64,000 nt of DNA from Candidatus Kaelpia imicola (GTDB lineage: Bacteria > Omnitrophota > Gorgyraeia > Kaelpiales > Kaelpiaceae). Location of the stretch: positions 14,865 to 78,864 of the forward strand of contig JAVCCL010000025.1 in the NCBI GenBank assembly GCA_030765505.1, read 5' to 3'. Below, piece after piece: positions 360 to 51,116 of this stretch. A program made the translations under genes and the position numbers. The notes beneath the pieces are model-generated. The model saw only the letters and a list, made by a program, of their open reading frames with translations. It had not been told where the DNA came from and made no database searches. How positions within the stretch are numbered: position 1 is the stretch's first letter; each line of letters opens with the position of its first letter.

Positions 360-1952
360 ATGTTAAAACAATTTAAATCTAATCCAAAAAATATAGCTCT
401 CATAGTTATAACAGGAACTATCCTTCGTCTATATAAATTAGGCTATCATGACTTCTGGTATGATGAAGCGATGAGCATAGCGTTGGCTCGAGTACCTCTA
501 AACATTACCACTCCCCCTCTCTACTATCTTCTTCTTAATATATGGATGAAATTGTTCCCAATTAATGAGTTTTATCTTCGATTACCTTCATTGCTTTTCA
601 GCGCTGTATCTATACTATTAATTTTCATTCTGGGTAAAAAATTATTCAGTCCCAACATTGCTCTTTTTGCAGCTGCTATAATGAGCTTTTGCCCTTTTCA
701 TATCTGGTATGCTCAAGAAGCCCGTCCCTATAGCCTGCTTTTATTGTTAGGCCTTTTATCTACTTTTTTACTTTATCAAGCCTTAACCAAAAACAAAACA
801 TACCTTCTAATATTATTTATATTAACTTCTGTTTTAGGACTCTATACAAGCTATTTTTTCGGAGTCCTTTTTGCCTGTCAATTATTGACTATACTTTTTC
901 TTTTCAAAAAATTTAAATTTAAATTCACAGGAATATTTTTCCTCTTTTTTACCCCGATATTTATCTTCTTACCCTGGCTATTAAAATTTTTAAGAAGATT
1001 ATGCTACATTTACCAAGGCTTCTGGATACCTGAACCTAATTTTAAATCTTTGCTGATAACTTTAGAAAATTTAAATGTTGGATACAATGCACTGCCCATT
1101 ATCTATATCCTCGCAAATGTTGTAACACTAATTTCAGCAATTTATATTCTTTTAAATATTAATAAATTACCCTGGAAAAAGGTAAATTTAGTTTTTATAT
1201 TATCTCTATTTTTACTTCCTATTTTCCTAATATTTGTATTTTCAAAATTTGTTACTTCCATCTATTTAGACCGAGCATTCTTAATATTTAGCCCTTATTA
1301 TTACTTGTTTTTAAGCCTGGGTATCTGCTCGATTAAACCGAAGCGATTCAAAAACATTGTAATCTCTCTATTTTTTATTTTACTCTTCTATGGAAATTAT
1401 GCTTATTTTACTGACAAGATGCCCTCATCAGAAATTCATCATATGGGGGCAATGCTTAAAAAACAGGTTAAACCAGCAGTTGAATTTATATCTAACAATT
1501 ATAAATCGGAAGATTTAATTGCCTATACTAATTTTTCTTTTCCAATATTATTCAATTATTATTCTTCACCTGAAGCTTTAGAGACTAACTCTCACACTAT
1601 TTTCAAATTCTTTAACAAGAAGAATTTACCGCAGCATACTTCTTCACACAAAACTTCTGCAAAGATGGTTAAAACCTTCGATCAGAAATACTTTATAATA
1701 CCGTCTGCTCAAGACCCCTACTGGAGAAGAGGATATGCAGCTGACTATAGTATTATTAATTTGGAGAAACATTCTCCGGCTAAAGAGATTAAGACCATTT
1801 GGCTTATTTCAACTAACTGGCAAAGAGATGGTCAGTTGGATGAAAATTCCCAAGCTGTAAACAGATGGATGGATAAAAATTATAATCTTATTCTTGAAAA
1901 AGAATTTCAGGGTATATTTATATTTAAATATGTTAAAAACTTCCGAGATTAA
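360..1952 (+). CDS. GT-C fold membrane glycosyltransferase (PMT_2 / ArnT-like, GT39/GT83 family)
   Basis: 530 aa with multiple TM helices in the N-terminal two thirds and a soluble C-terminal domain. N-terminal motif YHDFWYDEAMS and FYLRLPSLLFS are typical of the COG1807 polyprenyl-phosphate-sugar dependent glycosyltransferases. The gene is very AT-rich (about 25-33% GC). Confidence 0.65.
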   Translation: MLKQFKSNPKNIALIVITGTILRLYKLGYHDFWYDEAMSIALARVPLNITTPPLYYLLLNIWMKLFPINEFYLRLPSLLFSAVSILLIFILGKKLFSPNIALFAAAIMSFCPFHIWYAQEARPYSLLLLLGLLSTFLLYQALTKNKTYLLILFILTSVLGLYTSYFFGVLFACQLLTILFLFKKFKFKFTGIFFLFFTPIFIFLPWLLKFLRRLCYIYQGFWIPEPNFKSLLITLENLNVGYNALPIIYILANVVTLISAIYILLNINKLPWKKVNLVFILSLFLLPIFLIFVFSKFVTSIYLDRAFLIFSPYYYLFLSLGICSIKPKRFKNIVISLFFILLFYGNYAYFTDKMPSSEIHHMGAMLKKQVKPAVEFISNNYKSEDLIAYTNFSFPILFNYYSSPEALETNSHTIFKFFNKKNLPQHTSSHKTSAKMVKTFDQKYFIIPSAQDPYWRRGYAADYSIINLEKHSPAKEIKTIWLISTNWQRDGQLDENSQAVNRWMDKNYNLILEKEFQGIFIFKYVKNFRD

Positions 1953-6954: not shown

Positions 6955-7198
6955 CTTAACTTATAAATAGCAATATATATGCCAAATATAAATAACAGAG
7001 CTTATTACTGTAAGTAATTATAGACAAAGGTGTTAAGCGGAAAATGCTTTTTGACTCCCTAAAAAATTAAAAGTACAATAGTACAATATTTTCTAATCTA
7101 ACTTAATAAATATTTAATAAATGCATTTAAGATTATATTACCTAAATCGTTAAAATTAAATGGGGTTAGAGTAAACTTTAGTTGCAGTTTATGGGTAG

Positions 7199-7500
7199 AG
7201 GCAGGTCCGTAAGCCGAATTCTGTTTTAGATAACCATCTGTCTACTATCCGAATTGCTTCGGATATTTAGCGGTTAACCCGCCCGCTGGGCCGGGCCAGC
7301 CTTAAACGCGGACTATTCAACCTTAACTCGCATAGAGATTGCCACGTTTCACCTCTCCCAGTTCAGGGAGAACTCGTCTCTGCGGCTCTTATCCTGACAG
7401 GTCTAAAAAACCTGCGTTCCGACGTTATCGGAATATGCTCACCCTCTGAGTTCGGACTTTCCTCCCTTTCAAAAGAAAGAGCGGCTATCCAACCTGCCTC
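7199..7500 (-). ncRNA. rnpB: RNase P RNA (bacterial type A, compact, about 300 nt)
   Basis: The minus-strand transcript begins GAGGCAGG and ends CCUGCCUC, forming the P1 helix. It contains GGGAGGAAAGUCCGAAC (CR-I/P4 5' strand), GAUAAGAGCCGCAG (GGUAAGAGC-like) and ACAGAAUUCGGCUUA (CR-V/P4 3' strand). The P4 pairing UCCGAA/UUCGGA covaries relative to the E. coli UCCGGG/CCCGGC. The region is GC-rich and free of ORFs. Confidence 0.65.
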
Positions 7501-7501
7501 T

Positions 7502-7915
7502 TTAAAATAAAACATCCTTGGATTCTGCAGCAGAATAAGCAAGCTTATCCGCCTCTCTATTCTCTTCCCGCAAAATATGATTAAACTCTATACTTTCAAA
7601 ATTATTCAGTAAGTACTTTATATTTACAAGGAGAGGTTTTAAATGTTCCTTCTTTGTCTTATACTCCCCCTTAACCTGCTTAACCAGCAACTCGCTATCT
7701 AAAAACACCTTTAAATCATCTATCCCTAAAAGCAGCGCTTCGGTAAGACCAACGATAAGGGCCAAATATTCAGCAACATTATTAGTACTAGAACCAATGG
7801 GCAGAGAGAGCTCTTTTAAGATAACCCCATGAGAATCTTTGATCACAACACCAACCCCGGCTGGGCCAGGATTACCGCGGGAAGAACCATCTGAATAAAG
7901 CCTAAAACTACTCAT
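7502..7915 (-). CDS. rnhA: Ribonuclease HI-like protein
   Basis: YSDGSSRGNPGPAGVGVV and AEYLALIVGL motifs belong to the RNase H fold. The track ORF extends to 7954, but the likely start is the internal Met (MSSFRLYSDG) at 7915, which overlaps the upstream Zn-ribbon gene by 8 nt. Confidence 0.7.
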   Translation of the reverse strand: MSSFRLYSDGSSRGNPGPAGVGVVIKDSHGVILKELSLPIGSSTNNVAEYLALIVGLTEALLLGIDDLKVFLDSELLVKQVKGEYKTKKEHLKPLLVNIKYLLNNFESIEFNHILREENREADKLAYSAAESKDVLF

Positions 7916-8627
7916 CGAGATAGAATATCCTAGAGCAGCGCTCACAAGTAACAATACTGCTTGCTCTCTTTATCTCATTTATAGTTTGAGGACGTAAACT
8001 TAAATGGCAGCCACCGCAAGCACCATCAACAACTGGAACAATAGCTAAACCATCCTTGCTCTCAATCAATCTTTCATAAATAGAGAGAACCTCAGGGTCT
8101 ACCTCTTGAGCGATTTTGCCTCTCTCTACTTTTTGAGATTGAATCTTCTGTTCAATTACAGCCACATCCTGCTTAACTTTATATTCTTCCTGCTGAAACT
8201 CTTCTTTAAACTTCTTGAACTCATTCTTCTCTCTGTTAAGCCTTAAGTCTATCTCATCCATGCTATCCATTAGCTTCAATATCTCGTCTTCAATGCATGA
8301 ATTATCGGCCTTCTTACCCTCTATCTCACCTAAAAGAGCTTTATACTCTTTGTTCGTCTTTACTTGAAGAAGCTGCTGCTGAAACTTCCGGATCCCCTCT
8401 TCGGCAATCTGGAGTTCTAACTCCTTATCTTTTATCTTAACCTGCAGATCCTTGATCTCTTCTTCAATTCTATCAATCTCTTCTTTTTTCTGATCTAACT
8501 CAAGCCTAAAGTCCTGAAGTTTTTTAGGCATATCCTCTTTACGAAAACTCAAATCACGGAGCCTGGAATCATACCCCTGGAGCTCTTTTAAAAATTCTAT
8601 CTGCTTTTTAAAGTCTTGCACTTTCAT
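7908..8627 (-). CDS. Coiled-coil protein with C-terminal C4 zinc ribbon (COG1579-like)
   Basis: Long coiled-coil followed by CGGCHLSL...CERCSRIF. This family is commonly found upstream of an RNase H-like gene. Confidence 0.6.
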   Translation of the reverse strand: MKVQDFKKQIEFLKELQGYDSRLRDLSFRKEDMPKKLQDFRLELDQKKEEIDRIEEEIKDLQVKIKDKELELQIAEEGIRKFQQQLLQVKTNKEYKALLGEIEGKKADNSCIEDEILKLMDSMDEIDLRLNREKNEFKKFKEEFQQEEYKVKQDVAVIEQKIQSQKVERGKIAQEVDPEVLSIYERLIESKDGLAIVPVVDGACGGCHLSLRPQTINEIKRASSIVTCERCSRIFYLDE

Positions 8628-8641
8628 ATAAGTTCATCAAC

Positions 8642-8715
8642 TGGGCGATAGAGGACTCGAACCTCCGACATCCACGATGTGAACGTGGCGCTCTAACCAG
8701 CTGAGCTAACCGCCC
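8642..8715 (-). tRNA. tRNA-Val (anticodon CAC)
   Basis: The minus-strand sequence GGGCGGTTAGCTCAGCTGGTTAGAGCGCCACGTTCACATCGTGGATGTCGGAGGTTCGAGTCCTCTATCGCCCA folds into a cloverleaf with anticodon loop UUCACAU. CCA is not encoded. Confidence 0.85.
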
Positions 8716-8744
8716 GCTCAACACTTTCTAACCATACTATTAAA

Positions 8745-8817
8745 TGGTCCCGCCAGGACTTGAACCTGGAACCAACTGATTATGAGTCAGCTGCTCTGCC
8801 AATTGAGCTACGAGACC
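8745..8817 (-). tRNA. tRNA-Met (anticodon CAU; elongator type, or tRNA-Ile2 if lysidinylated)
   Basis: The minus-strand sequence GGTCTCGTAGCTCAATTGGCAGAGCAGCTGACTCATAATCAGTTGGTTCCAGGTTCAAGTCCTGGCGGGACCA has a G1-C72 pair, so it is not an initiator. The anticodon loop is CUCAUAA. Confidence 0.8.
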
Positions 8818-9895: not shown

Positions 9896-11599
9896 CTAAC
9901 TTAAAGGACTCTTCTTTATATCTCTAAAGACTCTCTCTATTTTTAGCTTACCTCTAGGCTTATTGATATCATCCGGAATTACAATCTTATTGTTTACAAG
10001 AGATGCCCCAATAACACCACTCATCGACTGATGAAACAACCAGCCGGCAGCGCCGGTATACCCACTCCAGATCATACGTCCAACCTCGAAATTAGTAAGA
10101 ATATCAGCCGGCTGCTTATTGGGCTGACCGCCGTAAATCTCTATCTTATCTTCTCCAACATGGCCAATGGGTGTTATCTTACGCCAAAGCCTATAACTGA
10201 TGGCTCTATATTCATCAGCCTTCTTATAGTCACCCAACTTCTCAAAACGCTCTGTGAGAACTCTGGAAGCTCTTATGAGCCACTGTACACCGTGACAATA
10301 CATTCCGTTTTCACGCACCCCCTCAGGATACCTTGAACTCCTTCCAAGGTAAGGCTTGGTATCCTCGCGTAACGCCGGCCAACCAAGCAAAATAACATCT
10401 TCTTTCTCAAGTACTTCCAATGCAGTATGGAACACTATCAACGACCTTTCTAAATTTACACCCGCTTTAACAGCCCAGGCAGCCGTTAAAGCATCTATCT
10501 CCCAGACACCGCTATCTTTTATTCCAATCTCTGTACCGTCATCGTGAATGGCACGTAAATACCTATCCTCTCTCCATGTACCTTCAAGAACATCTTCAAG
10601 TTTCTGCATCTTTCTTAGGTAGTGTTCTTTACGACCATGACCCTCTCTCTTTTCAATTATAGGAAGCATATGCCTTAAAACATAGTAGAGGAAGAACCCG
10701 AGCCATATACTCTCACCCCGCCCTTCGCTTCCTATTTCATCCAGGCCATCATTCCAATCTCCCGTTCTTATCAAGGGTATTCCATGTTCTCCCAATCGTT
10801 TTTCTAAAATAAGATCTATAGATCTTAAAGCATGCTTATAAACAGAATCTGCTCTGGTTGAACGATGATAGATATGACCCCAGCCTGTCTTATTATGCGG
10901 CAAATCGGCAAACGGAAACTCTGACCATACATATGATGTCATTTCATCCAATAACGAATAATCACCGGTAGTCCTAACATACTCTACAATGGCCCAGGGA
11001 AGCCAGAGCGGGTTATCTGAAGCATGGGAACGACAGGCAAAAGCAGTTCTGCCATCAAGCTGAGTAAAGAACCAGTGATAGACATCGCCTTCGAAGAATT
11101 GATGAGAAGCATGGAGAATAATCTGCTTTCTAGCCAGCGCAGGGTCTACCCAAATAAGGTTTACAGAGTCCTGAAGCTGATCCCTGAAACCATAGGCTCC
11201 GCTTGTTTGGTAAAATCCCCTCCGAGCCCAGATTCTCTCCGCCAAAGCTTGATATTTAAGCCAATTTTGATAGCGATCAAACTCAACTTGATTCGTCTTC
11301 ACCTCTACTGTTCCCATTAAATTCAACCACCAACTACGCGTATTATTAAGACTCTTCTTAACATAATCCAAACTTTTATACTTTTTGGCTAATTTAAGTG
11401 CTTTATCTCTCTTATCTGTCTGACCAAGAATAAATGCGATTGTGTAATCTCCGCCTGCAGGAATATCCAGGGTGCTTAAAAGGGCTGCTATCTGTCTATC
11501 ATCGTAGAGCTGAGCATTGTCAGCCTCACCCTTCTCTACCATAAACGGATGAGTTATACCTCTACCCAAACCAAAGAATCTCCCCCTCTTTGTCTCCAC
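9896..11599 (-). CDS. GH94 catalytic (alpha/alpha)6 domain (cellobiose phosphorylase / cyclic beta-1,2-glucan synthase C-terminal-like); probably the 3' part of the upstream gene
   Basis: RGRFFGLGRG and SGAYGFRDQLQD are GH94 signature blocks. The reading frame stays open upstream of the GTG start as far as 11638, and it overlaps the 3' end of the 1519-aa ORF in a different frame. Confidence 0.6.
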   Translation of the reverse strand: METKRGRFFGLGRGITHPFMVEKGEADNAQLYDDRQIAALLSTLDIPAGGDYTIAFILGQTDKRDKALKLAKKYKSLDYVKKSLNNTRSWWLNLMGTVEVKTNQVEFDRYQNWLKYQALAERIWARRGFYQTSGAYGFRDQLQDSVNLIWVDPALARKQIILHASHQFFEGDVYHWFFTQLDGRTAFACRSHASDNPLWLPWAIVEYVRTTGDYSLLDEMTSYVWSEFPFADLPHNKTGWGHIYHRSTRADSVYKHALRSIDLILEKRLGEHGIPLIRTGDWNDGLDEIGSEGRGESIWLGFFLYYVLRHMLPIIEKREGHGRKEHYLRKMQKLEDVLEGTWREDRYLRAIHDDGTEIGIKDSGVWEIDALTAAWAVKAGVNLERSLIVFHTALEVLEKEDVILLGWPALREDTKPYLGRSSRYPEGVRENGMYCHGVQWLIRASRVLTERFEKLGDYKKADEYRAISYRLWRKITPIGHVGEDKIEIYGGQPNKQPADILTNFEVGRMIWSGYTGAAGWLFHQSMSGVIGASLVNNKIVIPDDINKPRGKLKIERVFRDIKKSPLS

Positions 11600-14500
11600 A
11601 CCCTCAGAGAGAGTTGAGCTTGAAACAAAAGCCAGCCTTTACGGAACATATTACGAGGATTATAGAATAAAAGGACATCATTATCTTTGTCATAGCTTAT
11701 CAATAACTCACCTGAGCGCTCAGGCATAAACTCAAGCACCATCTGGAAATAAGGAGCAATGCGGAATCTTTTTTTACGGCCGCTATTGTTCTTTATTTTC
11801 AAAAGATATACACCTAAAGGGTCATCCGGCGGTACAAAAACTGTAAGCTCGGTTGAAATATCCTTTCCTTTCATATGAAAGACCGCACTGCCATCGACAC
11901 TGAACTCAGAGATATTTTTGACACTATTATCATTAAGCGGAAAATAGGTCGGAGAGTACCAGCTCTCTTCATCTATATCGTATAGATATATCGCCTCTCC
12001 GGGAATCTCTCTTGTAACCGTATCAGGCCAGTCTGGAGTCAAGCGGTTCTGCTGAGAGTTACCATTACAAGATGTATGAAGACCGCGATTTGTAACCATA
12101 ACAGAGTGCCCCAGAGAGTTAGACATAGCATGGTCATAAGGTCTGGGAGTATAGGGAGTACGGACTAAAATTTTGTTTCCATTATCCATATATTCAGAAT
12201 AAGGCTGCGGTGTTCCGGGAAGAATCTCTCCATGACCGATAAGTAATCTCTTCTCTCTCCTGGGTTCATAACCTACGGCAGTCTGCTTAGGTTGTAACAG
12301 TCTCTTCACCAGATCAAGAGCGCCGTTACGGCTCTCCTCGTATCCAATCATAAGATGTATAGTCTTAGAAGAGTTAGGGTCGAGCTCCACGTTAAGCATA
12401 AGACTCCCAATCGGGTCAAATGTCGGATAACGCTCGGTATTCTCGGCCTTCATGAAATCTAAAGTCTCAAGCACTCTTGGATTCCAGATGCTCTGAGCAC
12501 GGCCAATGAAGTCCATTCTGGAAAATAGAATACCTTCGGGGGAAATGTCTGTCGCTAAAATACCCATAGAGTTAGTACATTTTTGCCAGGATAGAAGTGT
12601 ATTAAAACCATTGATATACTCCATCTCAGGAAATAACCGCGCATACTGAGTATGGAACCTGTCATGCAAACCTCCATTAAGCACCCACTCTAAGTAGGGA
12701 ACAACTTTTAAATTACGCTTGCTATCTTTAAGGTTTTTAATATTTATCTTCCATATCTCCGCCCTGCTCTCCTGATCAGATAAGGTTATATCAATAGTAG
12801 TTTTAATGCCGTTTGAAGAGTTGATAACTTTAAGAGAATCTGAGTTCATCTTGATCTCAGAAGGTTGAAACTTATCTTCCGGAAAATTACCCACTACAGG
12901 CCAATAGCGCTTTTCAGCATCGGCAGAGTTGTCAACTAAATACAGAATTCTACCGCAAGGATCTATAATATCGTAAGAACGTCTGGTAATATCATATTCC
13001 GGAGGATAGACGCCACTCTTCCTGTGGTCAACCTGACTATATATCTCTCCATTCTCCTTAAGAAATGTCCTGTACCCAACTCTATTGGCTATATGGTAGG
13101 TCTTTATGAATCTCTTTCTTGAACGCCGTCTAAAAGAACGGACCAAAAACGATATTCCGCTAAAAATAAAAACAGCAACAAAGAATGATAGCAACCTCTG
13201 GTATAGAACAACACCTTCTAAGAAAGCAAAAATACCTCCTCCAAGAGAATCACGTATAGCCGCTGATCTACTCCAGGCATAATTCCACTCCTCACCTCTT
13301 GGGAGATAAAACGGAATTAAAAGAGGGCCCCAGGTACAGAATCTTTTAACCGCTTCCGGAATGTAGCGTTGAGCTGTATCTATTTTGATAAACCGCGCAA
13401 CTTTATCATCAAGCTTATCCAGTCCTATAAAACTTAAGTTGACCAACGTTGCGACACGCAGACCCATATGGTCCATCCAGATAAGAACCCTAAAGAAATC
13501 AAAAGCAAGTACATATACAAAGAGATTAAGGCTCCACTGTCTAAATGCCTGATCTGACATTGTTAAGTTATGATATATAGCAGAGAGCGTACGAATAGCT
13601 CCATCCTGATTATACCAGGTTGGATCCGGCATCATCCGCAAAAAGGTAAATATAATTGGCGACATCCATAAACCCCAACGCAAAACATATATCATATGTT
13701 CTATAAGCTGAGAGAATCCTTCTCTTGAGAAGAAAAATTTAATTGGTGCCTTATGTTTTTCAAAAAAAGCAAGAAGAAAGACTTTATTTATGGCAAATAA
13801 CCAGGCGGCTATAGCCCAGTTAATAACTCCGGCAAGCGATTCATCAAACAATAATCTGACTCCGCCGCGATAGATTCCCAGATCTATCCGCCCCCACTTA
13901 TTGACTAAAGGGTATGTAATATATTCCATAGCTTTAAACCCCGAGCTTGTATACAGCTTGAACTTCGCTACAACAACAGGGACCTGTAAAGCATCAAGAT
14001 AGAAAGCCAACGCACTACCAATAAAAACACCTATGATAGCATCGACAAAATACCGTCTCCAGGATTGAATTCGCCCCTGAGATTTAAATCTATAGGCAGC
14101 GTCTCTTAAAATACTTATCCCTGCAGATGAGAAGATACCAAAGACTGCACCAAATATAACTCTGCCCGACATATTCCAGTTAATAAAATCACTGCTTAAA
14201 GCATAGGCAACCCCTATGCCTAAAATAGCTCCTCTTGCATAAAGCACATGGTCACGATAGCTGTAACGTGCCCTCTGAAAAAAAGGCAGGCTACCATCAA
14301 AAGTCTCTATAATGGTTTTAAACAACGGTAGGGCCAGTGCCCCGATAAAAATACCCAAAAGAAGGGGAATCTTCTCTGCCGATAGTTGCAATAGATTAAA
14401 ATCCAGGAGCAGATAGATTGAGTACATGAACCCCATTAGAAGAGCACTGTAAGCCATTCCCTTTTTTACGCCTGTCTTTACATGTCCAGTCACGCTTTCC

Positions 14501-16113
14501 CATGAAGGAGCTACCCTGCGTCCGTAATCAAGAGCCATCCCAGTTAAGAAATAGACCACCCCCCACAGTCCTGCAAAAGAGAGCATGCTCGTCAATATAA
14601 CCACAAATATCTTAACCACTTCAGGCAGAGATTCAACTCCGGCAGTAGAACCTAAGTTCGCAATCATAGGCGCAAGAACAACACCGACAGAGATAAATAA
14701 AATAAAGAGATGAAGCTTGCGTTTTTTAAGCAGTTCTCTCTTAACAACTAGGCTAAAACTATTGGCAATAGCCTCATTAAATCCAAATATAACAACAACT
14801 CTGCCCAAGGATTCTAAAAACCACCTAAATGAAGACAAAAACCCTAAAGTCAACACATTACCCAGTTGCTTAAGAAGTACCGGGGTCTGCAAAACCATTA
14901 ACCAGTTAAGAAGAAAAGGTGTTAAGATGATAGAGAACCCTGTAAGAGCCCTGACGTGCTTACCACCAATTGCTAAAGAACGTGCATTGGACACCTGGTA
15001 GATTAAAAAGATGATTACTGCAGCATATTTATTTAACATTAGAACCTGACCAAAGGTAGAAGGAGCGAATAGAATACCTAGCTTGCTTGAAGATGCAGCT
15101 AAAAGCCCGACAATTAAGATGTTCTTGAATACCTGAAAAGGACTAAGATGCCTGCCTATAATTGTAAATTTAAGCAATTCTGCAATGACCGCACCCATCA
15201 AACTCAAAAAGAGAAACTCCAAACTGAAACCCTCATTTAAAGGGCAGATTGTACCAAGATAGCATATCCCAAAAGCAACCGCAGCTATTAATGTAAATGT
15301 CGACCCATAAAGCAAATCCTTTTTCACTTTAGTAAGAATAGAATTATCTGAGGAGTTGGATTTAACCCTAGACTCTGAATACCTTTCTATAGACCTTCTC
15401 TTCAGCAGTTTAATCACTGAATTAGCAAAAAAACCTACAATCGCACTCAACAAGAGAACTATAGCCAACCTAAAGAAGATATAATTTTTATGCAGAAAAC
15501 TCTGTTTATAGAACTCAACATCAAAGTATAGAAAACCCTCTAATGCTTTATCTCCTGAAGCACCTCCAGAGGCAATAATCTCTTCCGCACTAGATATGGT
15601 AGTTACAACAAAACATACCTCTCTGAGATCACCTATTGTATTCCAGGCAACCTCCTCCCTGAAATATTTCCAATCATTCCTGAGATCAAGAGGTATCGAT
15701 TGCATAGCGTTAGAACCTTTGATCTCCATCTTTACAGAGATTTCTTCCAACTGCTTTTTATTGGGCGCCTTGAGGGATATTTTAACAGCATCTACGCTAT
15801 CTTTGCTCAAACTGGCAGGATAGTCTTTTGTCCATACCCCTACGATAGAACCTTGAGGCAACCAGTATTTAAACCTTAAGACATCCTTATCTATGACTTT
15901 GTCAAATACTCTGTCTGTTGAACCCAGCGCAACACCGATATTGAACGTTCCTTTTTGATTCGAATCTAGAATGCCGAAAGAGCTATCAACACTAGAAAAC
16001 GCCGGGAGAGAGAGAAAGAATGAGATTAAAAAAACTGTGATTATTCCTGGATAGCAATTGCATTTTCTACAAAGTATCTCTTCTATTCTCATAACTCTAA
16101 ACATTTTAAGCAA
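11554..16113 (-). CDS. Large polytopic membrane protein with C-terminal GH94 N-terminal beta-sandwich domain (NdvB/Cgs-like, but lacking a recognisable GT domain)
   Basis: 1519 aa. It has an N-terminal signal/TM segment, a periplasmic domain of about 160 aa, and roughly 800 aa of repeated TM helices. Its C-terminal 450 aa resemble the N-terminal domain of GH94 enzymes and continue into the downstream 567-aa ORF after a frameshift. Confidence 0.5.
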   Translation of the reverse strand: MLKMFRVMRIEEILCRKCNCYPGIITVFLISFFLSLPAFSSVDSSFGILDSNQKGTFNIGVALGSTDRVFDKVIDKDVLRFKYWLPQGSIVGVWTKDYPASLSKDSVDAVKISLKAPNKKQLEEISVKMEIKGSNAMQSIPLDLRNDWKYFREEVAWNTIGDLREVCFVVTTISSAEEIIASGGASGDKALEGFLYFDVEFYKQSFLHKNYIFFRLAIVLLLSAIVGFFANSVIKLLKRRSIERYSESRVKSNSSDNSILTKVKKDLLYGSTFTLIAAVAFGICYLGTICPLNEGFSLEFLFLSLMGAVIAELLKFTIIGRHLSPFQVFKNILIVGLLAASSSKLGILFAPSTFGQVLMLNKYAAVIIFLIYQVSNARSLAIGGKHVRALTGFSIILTPFLLNWLMVLQTPVLLKQLGNVLTLGFLSSFRWFLESLGRVVVIFGFNEAIANSFSLVVKRELLKKRKLHLFILFISVGVVLAPMIANLGSTAGVESLPEVVKIFVVILTSMLSFAGLWGVVYFLTGMALDYGRRVAPSWESVTGHVKTGVKKGMAYSALLMGFMYSIYLLLDFNLLQLSAEKIPLLLGIFIGALALPLFKTIIETFDGSLPFFQRARYSYRDHVLYARGAILGIGVAYALSSDFINWNMSGRVIFGAVFGIFSSAGISILRDAAYRFKSQGRIQSWRRYFVDAIIGVFIGSALAFYLDALQVPVVVAKFKLYTSSGFKAMEYITYPLVNKWGRIDLGIYRGGVRLLFDESLAGVINWAIAAWLFAINKVFLLAFFEKHKAPIKFFFSREGFSQLIEHMIYVLRWGLWMSPIIFTFLRMMPDPTWYNQDGAIRTLSAIYHNLTMSDQAFRQWSLNLFVYVLAFDFFRVLIWMDHMGLRVATLVNLSFIGLDKLDDKVARFIKIDTAQRYIPEAVKRFCTWGPLLIPFYLPRGEEWNYAWSRSAAIRDSLGGGIFAFLEGVVLYQRLLSFFVAVFIFSGISFLVRSFRRRSRKRFIKTYHIANRVGYRTFLKENGEIYSQVDHRKSGVYPPEYDITRRSYDIIDPCGRILYLVDNSADAEKRYWPVVGNFPEDKFQPSEIKMNSDSLKVINSSNGIKTTIDITLSDQESRAEIWKINIKNLKDSKRNLKVVPYLEWVLNGGLHDRFHTQYARLFPEMEYINGFNTLLSWQKCTNSMGILATDISPEGILFSRMDFIGRAQSIWNPRVLETLDFMKAENTERYPTFDPIGSLMLNVELDPNSSKTIHLMIGYEESRNGALDLVKRLLQPKQTAVGYEPRREKRLLIGHGEILPGTPQPYSEYMDNGNKILVRTPYTPRPYDHAMSNSLGHSVMVTNRGLHTSCNGNSQQNRLTPDWPDTVTREIPGEAIYLYDIDEESWYSPTYFPLNDNSVKNISEFSVDGSAVFHMKGKDISTELTVFVPPDDPLGVYLLKIKNNSGRKKRFRIAPYFQMVLEFMPERSGELLISYDKDNDVLLFYNPRNMFRKGWLLFQAQLSLRVWRQRGGDSLVWVEV

Positions 16114-16254: not shown

Positions 16255-17703
16255 TTACCTTGGTATGTAATGGTGCAACTCAACCTCTCCATTTTTGGTC
16301 ACAAAATATCTCGACATTTCTAAATCAGATTTAAGATAGAGATATCTCTTTAAAAATCTATCCGCTTCAATAGCAAGTACACCTCCAACCCACGGAAGCT
16401 TTGAGTTCGACCAAACTATATACCAAATTCCCGACTCTTTATCTATGGTAGGCATACCGCCCAAACCTATTCCTGCAACTGTGCTCTCTCCATCGTAATA
16501 ATAACTGAAAGCACCGAGTGAAAAATCAGGCAATAACCAGATTTCATCCTGAATAGACTCATTCTCCTCAATATAATCTGCAATATTACCCCATGCGCTT
16601 TTTGGAATCTTAAAATATAAAATAGTATCATTAATATAAAGGCAACCCCAAAGAAGAATAAACAGCATTGCTATTTTTTTGCTTCTCTCATAAAGTCTAG
16701 CCATGGTATCTCCCCAACCTATAGCTATAAATGGCAGTAGATGAAAGAAGTATCGGGATTCAAACTTATAGCTTAAAGATAAAGATAGAAAAGAAACCAG
16801 CATCAATGTCAGACCAATTCTTTTGTGCTCTTTAGATAACTTTAGTAAACCAAATACAGACAATATCGCAAATAGAACAAATATAACAAAGTAAATCAAG
16901 GTCAAACTATAAGGGAGATCATAGAAACTCATTTCAGAAAAACCGGTTATATCCTTAAAAAATCTCAGGACCCAACCAATCATGTTAAGCAGCTGTGTCT
17001 TTAAAGCAAACTGGTGCTTGAGATAATAGCACTCCATCTCTATATTAAGAGACCGAGACAATATTGAAGAATATAAAAACAGGAAAGGAATCAAAACAAA
17101 TATAGTCAAAAAAGATATCCTCCTATATATCTTGTTTTTAAACTTAAAAAAAAGGAAAGACAGCACTCCCAGATATGGAATTATACAAACGCTGCCATTG
17201 AGTAAGAACAAAAAAAGCGAACAGGAATAGAGAATAGAATATCTTGGGTAATCTTTGATAATCTTAATTAGAAAAAAAATCCAAAGACAGAAGAACAGTA
17301 AAGCCGCTGAATACATCCTTACCTCTTGAGCAAGAGTTAAACCGTATACTGAAAAAGAGAAGATAAATAGAGACCAGTGCCTTGCAATATTTGCTTTCAG
17401 CAACAACTTGCTTATATTAAAAAAGACTATTAATGAAAATATAGATGGAATTAAAGAAGGTAGGCGCAAAGAAAATTCTGAATCTCCAAAGACCATAATC
17501 CAAAATTTTAAAAACAGAAAGTAGAAAGGAAAATGGCCTGCATAAATTCTATCTGCCCAAATATTGTTTAAAGACAAGAACTTTGCTATATACCAACTAG
17601 TCCCCTCGTCTATCCACAGAAAATGAGTCTCTAACTTATGGAACCTTACAGCTGCTGCAACTATTATTATGACCGCAGGCAGATACCAAGCATCTCTTCT
17701 CAT
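16255..17703 (-). CDS. GT-C fold membrane glycosyltransferase (PMT_2 / ArnT-like), paralog of the 360-1952 gene
   Basis: 482 aa. LWIDEGTSWYIAKF and FSLRLPSLIPSIFS parallel FWYDEAMSIALAR and FYLRLPSLLFSAVS in the first GT-C protein. It has many TM helices. Confidence 0.6.
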   Translation of the reverse strand: MRRDAWYLPAVIIIVAAAVRFHKLETHFLWIDEGTSWYIAKFLSLNNIWADRIYAGHFPFYFLFLKFWIMVFGDSEFSLRLPSLIPSIFSLIVFFNISKLLLKANIARHWSLFIFSFSVYGLTLAQEVRMYSAALLFFCLWIFFLIKIIKDYPRYSILYSCSLFLFLLNGSVCIIPYLGVLSFLFFKFKNKIYRRISFLTIFVLIPFLFLYSSILSRSLNIEMECYYLKHQFALKTQLLNMIGWVLRFFKDITGFSEMSFYDLPYSLTLIYFVIFVLFAILSVFGLLKLSKEHKRIGLTLMLVSFLSLSLSYKFESRYFFHLLPFIAIGWGDTMARLYERSKKIAMLFILLWGCLYINDTILYFKIPKSAWGNIADYIEENESIQDEIWLLPDFSLGAFSYYYDGESTVAGIGLGGMPTIDKESGIWYIVWSNSKLPWVGGVLAIEADRFLKRYLYLKSDLEMSRYFVTKNGEVELHHYIPR

Positions 17704-50110: not shown

Positions 50111-50737
50111 TTAAAACTCTCTATAAGGAGGAACAACATCCTGAGGTTCCTCCCCCTGCTTGAGCTTCTTTTTTTTATCTTTTTCACCTATTTTGGATAT
50201 AAAGACTTTAACGATAACAGGTTCTTCCATTCCAAGCATCTCCTGAACTTTGCTTCTCAATTCAGACTGTATCTTCTCGGTTACAGAGGGGATATTAATC
50301 TCGGACAACATTGCAGCCTTAAGAGAGATAACCAATCCGCGCTTCCTAACCGTTACCTTGCTGCGCAGATCCCTTACATCGGGGTCATCTCTCATTATCT
50401 TTCTAACATAATCCTCAATAGCAGAGAGAGAGACTAAGACCTCCCCATAATCTGTTTTAAAAGCTATATTCTTCTCTGCAGCCGCACCTGACCATACAAA
50501 GTTAAGCAATGCAATCACAAGTACGATAAGCGCTGTCCCAACAAAACCTGCAAGAAGCTTTAAGGGAATAAGCTGCTCAGATTCGGCTAGAATAAAACTT
50601 AAATCCTGTTGGGAGATAAAATCCAGAGCATAGAGAACCATAAAGACGCCTATTACAAGGTAGAATAATCCGAACATTAAAAGAACAAACTTAGCCCTCA
50701 ATTTCATCTTTACCCTCCTTTGACAACTTTTTATCAA
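50111..50737 (-). CDS. Membrane protein downstream of asp23 (AmaP-like anchor?)
   Basis: N-terminal TM helices, with operon context alongside the Asp23 family gene. Confidence 0.35.
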   Translation of the reverse strand: MIKSCQRRVKMKLRAKFVLLMFGLFYLVIGVFMVLYALDFISQQDLSFILAESEQLIPLKLLAGFVGTALIVLVIALLNFVWSGAAAEKNIAFKTDYGEVLVSLSAIEDYVRKIMRDDPDVRDLRSKVTVRKRGLVISLKAAMLSEINIPSVTEKIQSELRSKVQEMLGMEEPVIVKVFISKIGEKDKKKKLKQGEEPQDVVPPYREF

Positions 50738-51116
50738 ATTTTATCTTCTCTATTACTCCGTGGATAGACATATCTTCAACTCTCTCTACTTCAACATTTA
50801 TTCTCTCGGGAATAATACCTATCATCTGATCAAGCATTCTCTTAATGCTGGATTGAACCCCGTTTACAATGTCGGGAATATTAACACCTAAAGCAACAAC
50901 TATTGCTATCGAAACCTTCAACTCTCCATCCTTTGACTCATCAATAGTTACTCCGCGTGAGAACTTTTTGCGGCCCAAAAAAGAGAGCAATCCTTTTTTA
51001 AAACCACTGGCAATCTTCTCTACGCCTTCAACTTCAAGCGCAGCCTTACGCATAATAACAGTTATAACCTCATTATGTATTTTTACATCCCCATTATTAC
51101 CTTTCTTAAACTCCAT
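50691..51116 (-). CDS. Asp23/Gls24 family (alkaline shock protein-like)
   Basis: DUF322-like block VKIHNEVITVIMRKAALEVEGV. Confidence 0.65.
   Translation of the reverse strand: MEFKKGNNGDVKIHNEVITVIMRKAALEVEGVEKIASGFKKGLLSFLGRKKFSRGVTIDESKDGELKVSIAIVVALGVNIPDIVNGVQSSIKRMLDQMIGIIPERINVEVERVEDMSIHGVIEKIKFDKKLSKEGKDEIEG

Follow-up and report, generated by a model that had tools for sequence, protein, structure and literature searches.

The locus and the position of the lesion

The window analysed here is a 64,000-nucleotide (nt) stretch of contig JAVCCL010000025.1 (positions 14,865 to 78,864) from Candidatus Kaelpia imicola (Omnitrophota), assembly GCA_030765505.1. On its minus strand lie two overlapping open reading frames (ORFs) of 1519 and 567 amino acids (aa) (Table 1), which together make up a single gene for a membrane protein with a GH94 catalytic domain, broken in two by a frameshift. 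The ORFs overlap by 46 nt (11554-11599), the downstream frame being -1 (= +2) relative to that of the upstream ORF, and, 5' of the GTG, the first stop codon in this frame is a TAA at 11641-11639. These ORF lengths, the 46-nt overlap, the difference in frame and the TAA were all described in an earlier note on this DNA, and each was confirmed. When one G is inserted at the site described below, the two frames join into 6219 nt, or 2072 codons counted from the TTG, with no internal stop; from ATG 16092, the start used in the NCBI annotation, the repaired protein has 2065 aa. The single protein proposed in the earlier note therefore stands, but with one of these two lengths in place of the ~2,085 aa given there. 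The 1512-aa 5' fragment (P0024) is 100% identical to NCBI P9L98_04005, a "MAG: hypothetical protein" of Candidatus Kaelpia imicola.

Pfam analysis of the upstream ORF revealed a complete GH94_b-supersand domain at residues 1014-1257 (E 1.9e-53), with a second copy after it that is only partial. In the downstream ORF, positions 194-251 of the same profile come first and Glyco_hydro_94 (PF17167) follows, with residues 90-531 covering its profile positions 1-420/420 (E 3.2e-64). For the second supersandwich, the upstream fragment alone matches profile positions 6-185 (91.1 bits) and the repaired protein matches 6-251/251 continuously (134.6 bits), so that the repaired protein contains two copies of the beta-supersandwich, PF06165. 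A division of the supersandwich matches across both ORFs in this manner is far beyond chance. The break had earlier been placed between the sandwich and the catalytic domain; the two parts do belong to one gene, but the actual cut lies inside the second beta-supersandwich.

A homologue search with the joined protein returned at least 17 single-ORF orthologues of 2018-2690 aa, with 45-77% identity and 98-100% query coverage. Their hosts are Omnitrophota metagenome-assembled genomes (MAGs) and one Elusimicrobiota MAG, the one named exception to Omnitrophota among the orthologues found. No split at the frameshift position was seen among the full-length orthologues or in five related loci (L001-L005). 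Since repair gives a continuous Pfam domain and the orthologues are all single ORFs, the two ORFs are one gene, as had been proposed. Conserved separate genes with starts of their own, which would have spoken for the contrary, were found neither in L001-L005 nor among the full-length orthologues.

A first homologue search, made with a 200-aa junction query, returned only fragments of 120-300 aa and missed the full-length orthologues; this outcome is treated as search bias, and the fragments were used only for the local consensus. The fragments (P0001-P0022), apparently from high-GC organisms, lie on long contigs (up to 755 kb) and have out-of-frame tails which begin at differing positions. They look like indel-rich assemblies of this long gene and not like a conserved feature. 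In the stored record of L005 a run of N at ~1535-1635, either masked sequence or a scaffold gap, lies inside the orthologous gene and mimics a split gene in ORF lists; a split gene in L005 was accordingly rejected, this being an N run and not a frameshift.

Comparison with the DNA of L001-L005 (75-86% nt identity) allowed the shift to be placed. These five loci read GGC TGG GCT TTT where the window reads GGC TGG CT TTT, and they carry GGCTGGGCTTT or GGTTGGGC, open across the site. The site sequence is TTCCGTAAAGGCTGGGCTTTTGT in L001/L002 (77% aa identity) as well as in L003 (94% aa over a 389-aa query, 86% nt), GGTTGGGCTTTTGT in L004 (91% aa over the query), GGTTGGGCCTTTGT in L005 (88% aa over the query) and TTCCGTAAAGGCTGG-CTTTTGT in the window. 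The lesion is thus a change of GGG to GG, ~20 nt 5' of the CT repeat, where the W codon (tgg, 11634-11632) meets the A codon (gct); the minus-strand context is GGC TGG[G]CT TTT GTT.

The protein sequences change over at the same point. The upstream frame reads ...NPRNMFRKGW followed by the non-homologous LLFQAQLSLRVW, while the downstream frame reads (stop)RL followed by AFVSSSTLSEGVETKRGRFFGLGRG; homology ends with FRKGW in the former and begins with AFVSS in the latter. The closest orthologue, P0023, has FYNPRNMFRKGWAFVSSS...ETKRGRFFGLGRG at this site. The out-of-frame tail of the 5' fragment comprises its last 25 codons (11631-11557), which are followed by the TAA at 11556-11554. When the gene was aligned pairwise, with gaps, to its counterparts in L003 and L004 (~5.8-5.9 kb shared), the G at 11632-11634 was the sole uncompensated indel. 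All other gaps are compensating +1/-1 or +2/-2 pairs no more than ~17 nt apart, and are alignment noise in divergent codons.

The 42-nt stretch quoted in the earlier note, aggctggcttttgtttcaagctcaactctctctgagggtgtgg, was found in the window, with T4 at 11630-11627 and CTCTCTCT at 11613-11606. The junction does fall inside it, the lesion lying at its first bases. The shift was, however, attributed to a "slippery stretch" formed by (CT)4 and T4, and this was not borne out. The T4 run has equal length in the intact L001-L004, where it is read in the downstream frame, and the (CT)4 run has equal length in L001/L002, where the frame is intact. Since both repeats are unchanged in intact relatives, the (CT)4 / T4 stretch is not the shift site, and slippage there was rejected.

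Table 1. Features of the interrupted GH94 gene and its surroundings (window coordinates)
Feature	Coordinates	Strand	Remarks
Upstream ORF, 1519 aa, TTG start	16113..11554	minus	mechanical ORF list
Downstream ORF, 567 aa, GTG start	11599..9896	minus	mechanical ORF list
5' fragment of gene	11554..16092	minus	ATG 16092, giving 1512 aa
3' continuation of gene, -1 frame	9896..11631	minus	begins AFVSSSTLSEGVETKRGRFFG; stop 9898-9896
TAA of downstream frame	11639..11641	minus	5' limit for shift position
Frameshift site, GG where five related loci have GGG	11632..11633	minus	DNA comparison with L001-L005
T4 run, not the lesion	11627..11630	minus	encodes conserved A-F-V in downstream frame
(CT)4 run, not the lesion	11606..11613	minus	read in orthologous frame (T L S E)
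N-terminal extracytoplasmic beta-sandwich module after signal anchor	15508..15957	minus	CBM11-like predicted fold
Polytopic membrane domain, ~780 aa	13141..15480	minus	~16 hydrophobic segments
First GH94 beta-supersandwich (residues 1014-1257)	12343..13074	minus	Pfam
Second GH94 beta-supersandwich (repaired residues 1328-1564)	11423..12132	minus	Pfam; cut after residue 1494
GH94 (alpha/alpha)6 catalytic domain	10007..11332	minus	Pfam; conserved GDWNDG motif aligned with 8RF9
PMT_2-type (GT-C-like) glycosyltransferase, upstream neighbour	16255..17703	minus	position conserved in L001/L002

Architecture and gene neighbourhood

Residues 1-1000 of the protein gave no match in Pfam (even at E<=5), NCBIfam or PDB sequences. 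AlphaFold2, given 28 orthologues, modelled residues 8-1010 (mean pLDDT 75.5, pTM 0.69) as a signal anchor, a beta-sandwich and a helical membrane domain. The best PDB matches of the beta-sandwich in Foldseek are family-11 carbohydrate-binding modules (E 5e-5, TMt 0.56). Counted by the motif GVFNIG ... VWTKxYP, the window protein has one copy of this ectodomain module and P0026 has five, with about three in P0044 and no fewer than two in P0030. Its copy number (1-5) accounts for much of the length range of the orthologues.

A hydropathy scan gave 18 windows, one of which is the N-terminal signal anchor and two of which overlap, leaving ~16 segments between residues 212 and 991. The last of these is followed by RRRSRKR, from which we infer that the GH94 module lies in the cytoplasm. 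Foldseek comparison of the membrane domain with the PDB produced no credible match, and the SID1-type alignments obtained were dismissed as meaningless (root-mean-square deviation >23 A). A search of 1.84 billion representative proteins (50% clustering) gave 435 relatives of the domain, mostly in proteins of 1700-2250 aa, and dozens of residues in the domain are invariant across the orthologues. At the other end of the protein, in the downstream ORF, the counterpart of GGDWNDGMNRVG in 8RF9 and of ADWNDCL in 3QDE is RTGDWNDGLDEIG; in GH94 the catalytic Asp is that of the conserved DWND motif.

Gene order is conserved on both sides of the GH94 gene, relatives having a PMT_2-type glycosyltransferase gene upstream and an inositol-monophosphatase-family gene downstream. 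The conserved PMT_2 / GH94 adjacency suggests a functional pairing. A second PMT_2-type (GT-C-like) glycosyltransferase gene is located at 360-1952 (+).

Elsewhere in the window, nearly all substantial ORFs between 3032 and 63984 (~61 kb) are on the minus strand, many with 4-nt overlaps, making an unusually long co-directional run. An RNase P RNA of class A (172.5 bits) at 7194-7500 (-) starts 1-2 nt past an RNase H/RVT_3-like ORF at 7502-7954 (-), and two tRNA genes lie just upstream, at 8642-8817. Two adjacent Asp23-family ORFs at 50111-51116 (-) overlap by 47 nt; they are paralogues, the second match being weak (E 1.6e-4), and not a split gene.

Origin of the frameshift

Four causes for the interruption were named in the earlier note: phase-variable slippage, programmed frameshifting, a real mutation and an assembly error. 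The first two found no support and the last two are both still candidates. Phase-variable on/off switching through slipped-strand mispairing at (CT)4 or T4 has in its favour that both short repeats are within 30 nt of the junction, but the indel is in neither of them, their length and frame being those of the intact relatives described above. The lesion itself sits in a 3-nt G run and not in a repeat tract, and tracts in contingency loci slip at an appreciable rate only when they are far longer than this. We regard this explanation as extremely improbable.

Programmed -1 ribosomal frameshifting, or transcriptional slippage, could in principle produce the full-length protein from the GG template, as the needed shift is -1 and a slip directly after TGG would yield the orthologous ...KGWAFVSS.... 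The site (CGT AAA GGC TGG CTT) lacks an X XXY YYZ heptamer, however, and between the TAA and AFV (11638-11632) a slip could take place only on GGC or TGG, where the -1 codons, AGG and CTG respectively, do not allow re-pairing. The 93 nt downstream are no more stably folded than shuffled sequence, with a minimum free energy of -21.7 kcal/mol, compared with a shuffle mean of -22.0 (z 0.11; pseudoknot-free folding). Nor is there a long A/T run at the site for transcriptional slippage, and the shift occurs in none of the relatives, even those at 88-94% aa identity. Between 11300 and 12000, promoter and terminator signals did not rise above shuffle expectation. Programmed frameshifting was rejected on these grounds and is, in our judgement, very unlikely.

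It is also extremely improbable that the ORFs are two separate functional genes, one for a membrane protein and one for a stand-alone GH94 catalytic protein. Starts are at hand, GTG (11599) and ATG (11542), and since the latter is 11 nt past the upstream stop, termination-reinitiation is conceivable. Against this, the split falls inside a folded beta-supersandwich domain, none of the orthologues is split at this site, and the upstream ORF ends in 25 non-homologous codons. In addition, a spacing of just 1 nt between GAGGG and the GTG after it is too short for Shine-Dalgarno function.

The interruption is therefore an ordinary, non-programmed frameshift, due to recent mutation or to assembly error. 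We give an even chance to GG being a real allele, carried by the Ca. Kaelpia imicola population of Ace Lake and very recent in evolutionary terms. One G of the GGG run would then have been lost by a non-programmed deletion in what is normally a single ORF of 2065 codons, and translation from the normal start would end 25 out-of-frame codons past Trp1494. The truncated product would still have its ectodomain, membrane domain and first supersandwich, but the second supersandwich would lack its final quarter and the catalytic domain would be missing entirely, making this a loss-of-function allele. Both the existence of the GG allele in cells and the inactivity of the truncated product are what we infer.

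The age of the lesion is constrained by the sequence downstream of it. The ratio of nonsynonymous to synonymous substitution rates (dN/dS) versus L003 is 0.063 for the upstream GH94 part and 0.074 for the downstream part. With L001 as the outgroup, private amino-acid changes downstream number 17 in the window lineage and 22 in L003. Since neither measure is elevated, a long-standing pseudogene was rejected; there is no trace of relaxed selection downstream, and the lesion is either very young or not biological.

Several observations weigh against a real allele. An intact, strongly constrained downstream half is equally expected from an assembly error, and a 3-nt homopolymer is no mutational hot spot. 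Exact 28-nt patterns with GG or GGG found no match in genome and metagenome contigs, a scan which missed L003 solely through a single-nucleotide polymorphism within the pattern. Exact-protein look-ups also gave no match, whether with P0024, with the PMT_2 neighbour or with the downstream ORF from three alternative starts, and protein-based locus searches returned only other species, with 88-94% aa identity; an independent copy of the species did not come to light in any of these searches.

An assembly or consensus artefact is accordingly a serious possibility, to which we assign somewhat less than even odds. The gene of the organism would then be intact (GGG), the G having been lost in the co-assembly or through a minor or erroneous de Bruijn path. 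Consistent with this, the 578 downstream codons are stop-free, purifying selection on them matches that on the upstream part, the catalytic motif is intact, all the closest relatives have GGG, and GG was matched by no independent sequence in the contig scans. Ca. Kaelpia imicola was, moreover, described as MAG 3300035698_1655 from an unpolished MEGAHIT "meta-large" co-assembly of 120 metagenomes from Ace Lake, Antarctica (PMC8542988).

Other properties of the window speak against an artefact. Elsewhere in the 64 kb, each of the three longest overlaps between ORFs on one strand involves different genes, which argues that the assembly is not indel-rich. Further frameshifts were sought at the overlapping ORF pairs 360/1894, 7908/7502 and 50691/50111 and rejected, these being different genes or paralogues with upstream alternative starts; none of the pairs checked is a split gene. 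A G3 run is not a typical error-prone homopolymer, and indel rates of short-read assemblies are low. MEGAHIT builds its paths from k-mers seen repeatedly and resolves bubbles to the better-covered path. Because contigs from de Bruijn graphs follow well-supported k-mer paths in this way, we lean slightly to the real allele.

Relation to known systems

The C-terminal part of the protein invites comparison with the cyclic beta-1,2-glucan synthases Cgs/NdvB, as represented by the cryo-EM structures from Agrobacterium tumefaciens (8RF0, 8RF9) and by Brucella Cgs. Common to both are a large polytopic inner-membrane protein and a cytoplasmic C-terminus with tandem GH94 supersandwiches and a GH94 (alpha/alpha)6 domain, and the GDWNDG motif is conserved. 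Over query residues 1306-2033, the C-terminal ~720 residues, P0023 matches 8RF9 with E 2.5e-100, and JGI pipelines name the orthologues "cyclic beta-1,2-glucan synthetase". Canonical Cgs proteins (2800-2970 aa), however, share only the GH94 third, with 35-38% query coverage. PF10091 (glucoamylase-like cyclase) is present in the canonical Cgs proteins P0053-P0068, but neither of the two ORFs has it and nor does any close orthologue. The GT84/transmembrane region of Cgs has no counterpart in residues 1-1000, either by sequence comparison with 8RF0/8RF9 or by Foldseek against Cgs chains. In place of these modules the interrupted protein has its CBM11-like ectodomain and an unannotated domain of ~16 transmembrane segments. 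With GT84 and PF10091, two of the three Cgs modules, absent, the name "cyclic beta-1,2-glucan synthetase" is not justified, and the protein is not a Cgs.

The soluble GH94 phosphorylases, acting on cellobiose (3QDE, 2CQS) or chitobiose (1V7V), belong to the same fold family, supersandwich plus (alpha/alpha)6, and have the catalytic motif region in common with the interrupted protein. They are more distant from P0023 than is 8RF9 (E 1e-23 to 1e-39), and they differ in being cytosolic proteins of ~800 aa with a single supersandwich and without membrane or extracytoplasmic parts. Residue 3 of the downstream ORF aligns with residue 207 of 3QDE, and by extrapolation the frameshift would map to about residue 190-195 of 3QDE, inside the N-terminal domain of the cellobiose phosphorylase.

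Perhaps the family is an Omnitrophota-centred envelope-glycan machine, in which a Cgs-like GH94 module is joined to the ~16-segment membrane domain and 1-5 CBM11-like modules, always beside a PMT_2 glycosyltransferase, to form a membrane-coupled beta-glucan synthase/translocase built unlike Cgs. We offer this picture tentatively and consider it doubtful, and the synthase/translocase role is speculation.

The annotation should show a single gene, flagged as frameshifted, in place of the two ORFs; a count of one stand-alone GH94 enzyme and one hypothetical membrane protein would be wrong. The frameshift is without regulatory meaning, and its sole interest is as a natural null allele, should reads confirm it. 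If the GG allele is real, it would be a natural knockout of the membrane GH94 gene in Ace Lake. The incidental value of the observation is that it points to a conserved, unstudied and mis-named membrane GH94 family in Omnitrophota.

With programmed -1 sites, such as that of dnaX (A AAA AAG) and those of IS3-family transposases, the site in the window has only the -1 direction in common; it is without a slippery heptamer, a stimulatory structure, conservation or a functional shorter product. It is much closer to the ordinary frameshifted genes of draft and MAG assemblies, which likewise have a single 1-nt indel in a short homopolymer, homology kept in both halves and no recoding signals. Among these it is distinctive only in the size and the uncharacterised nature of the interrupted gene.

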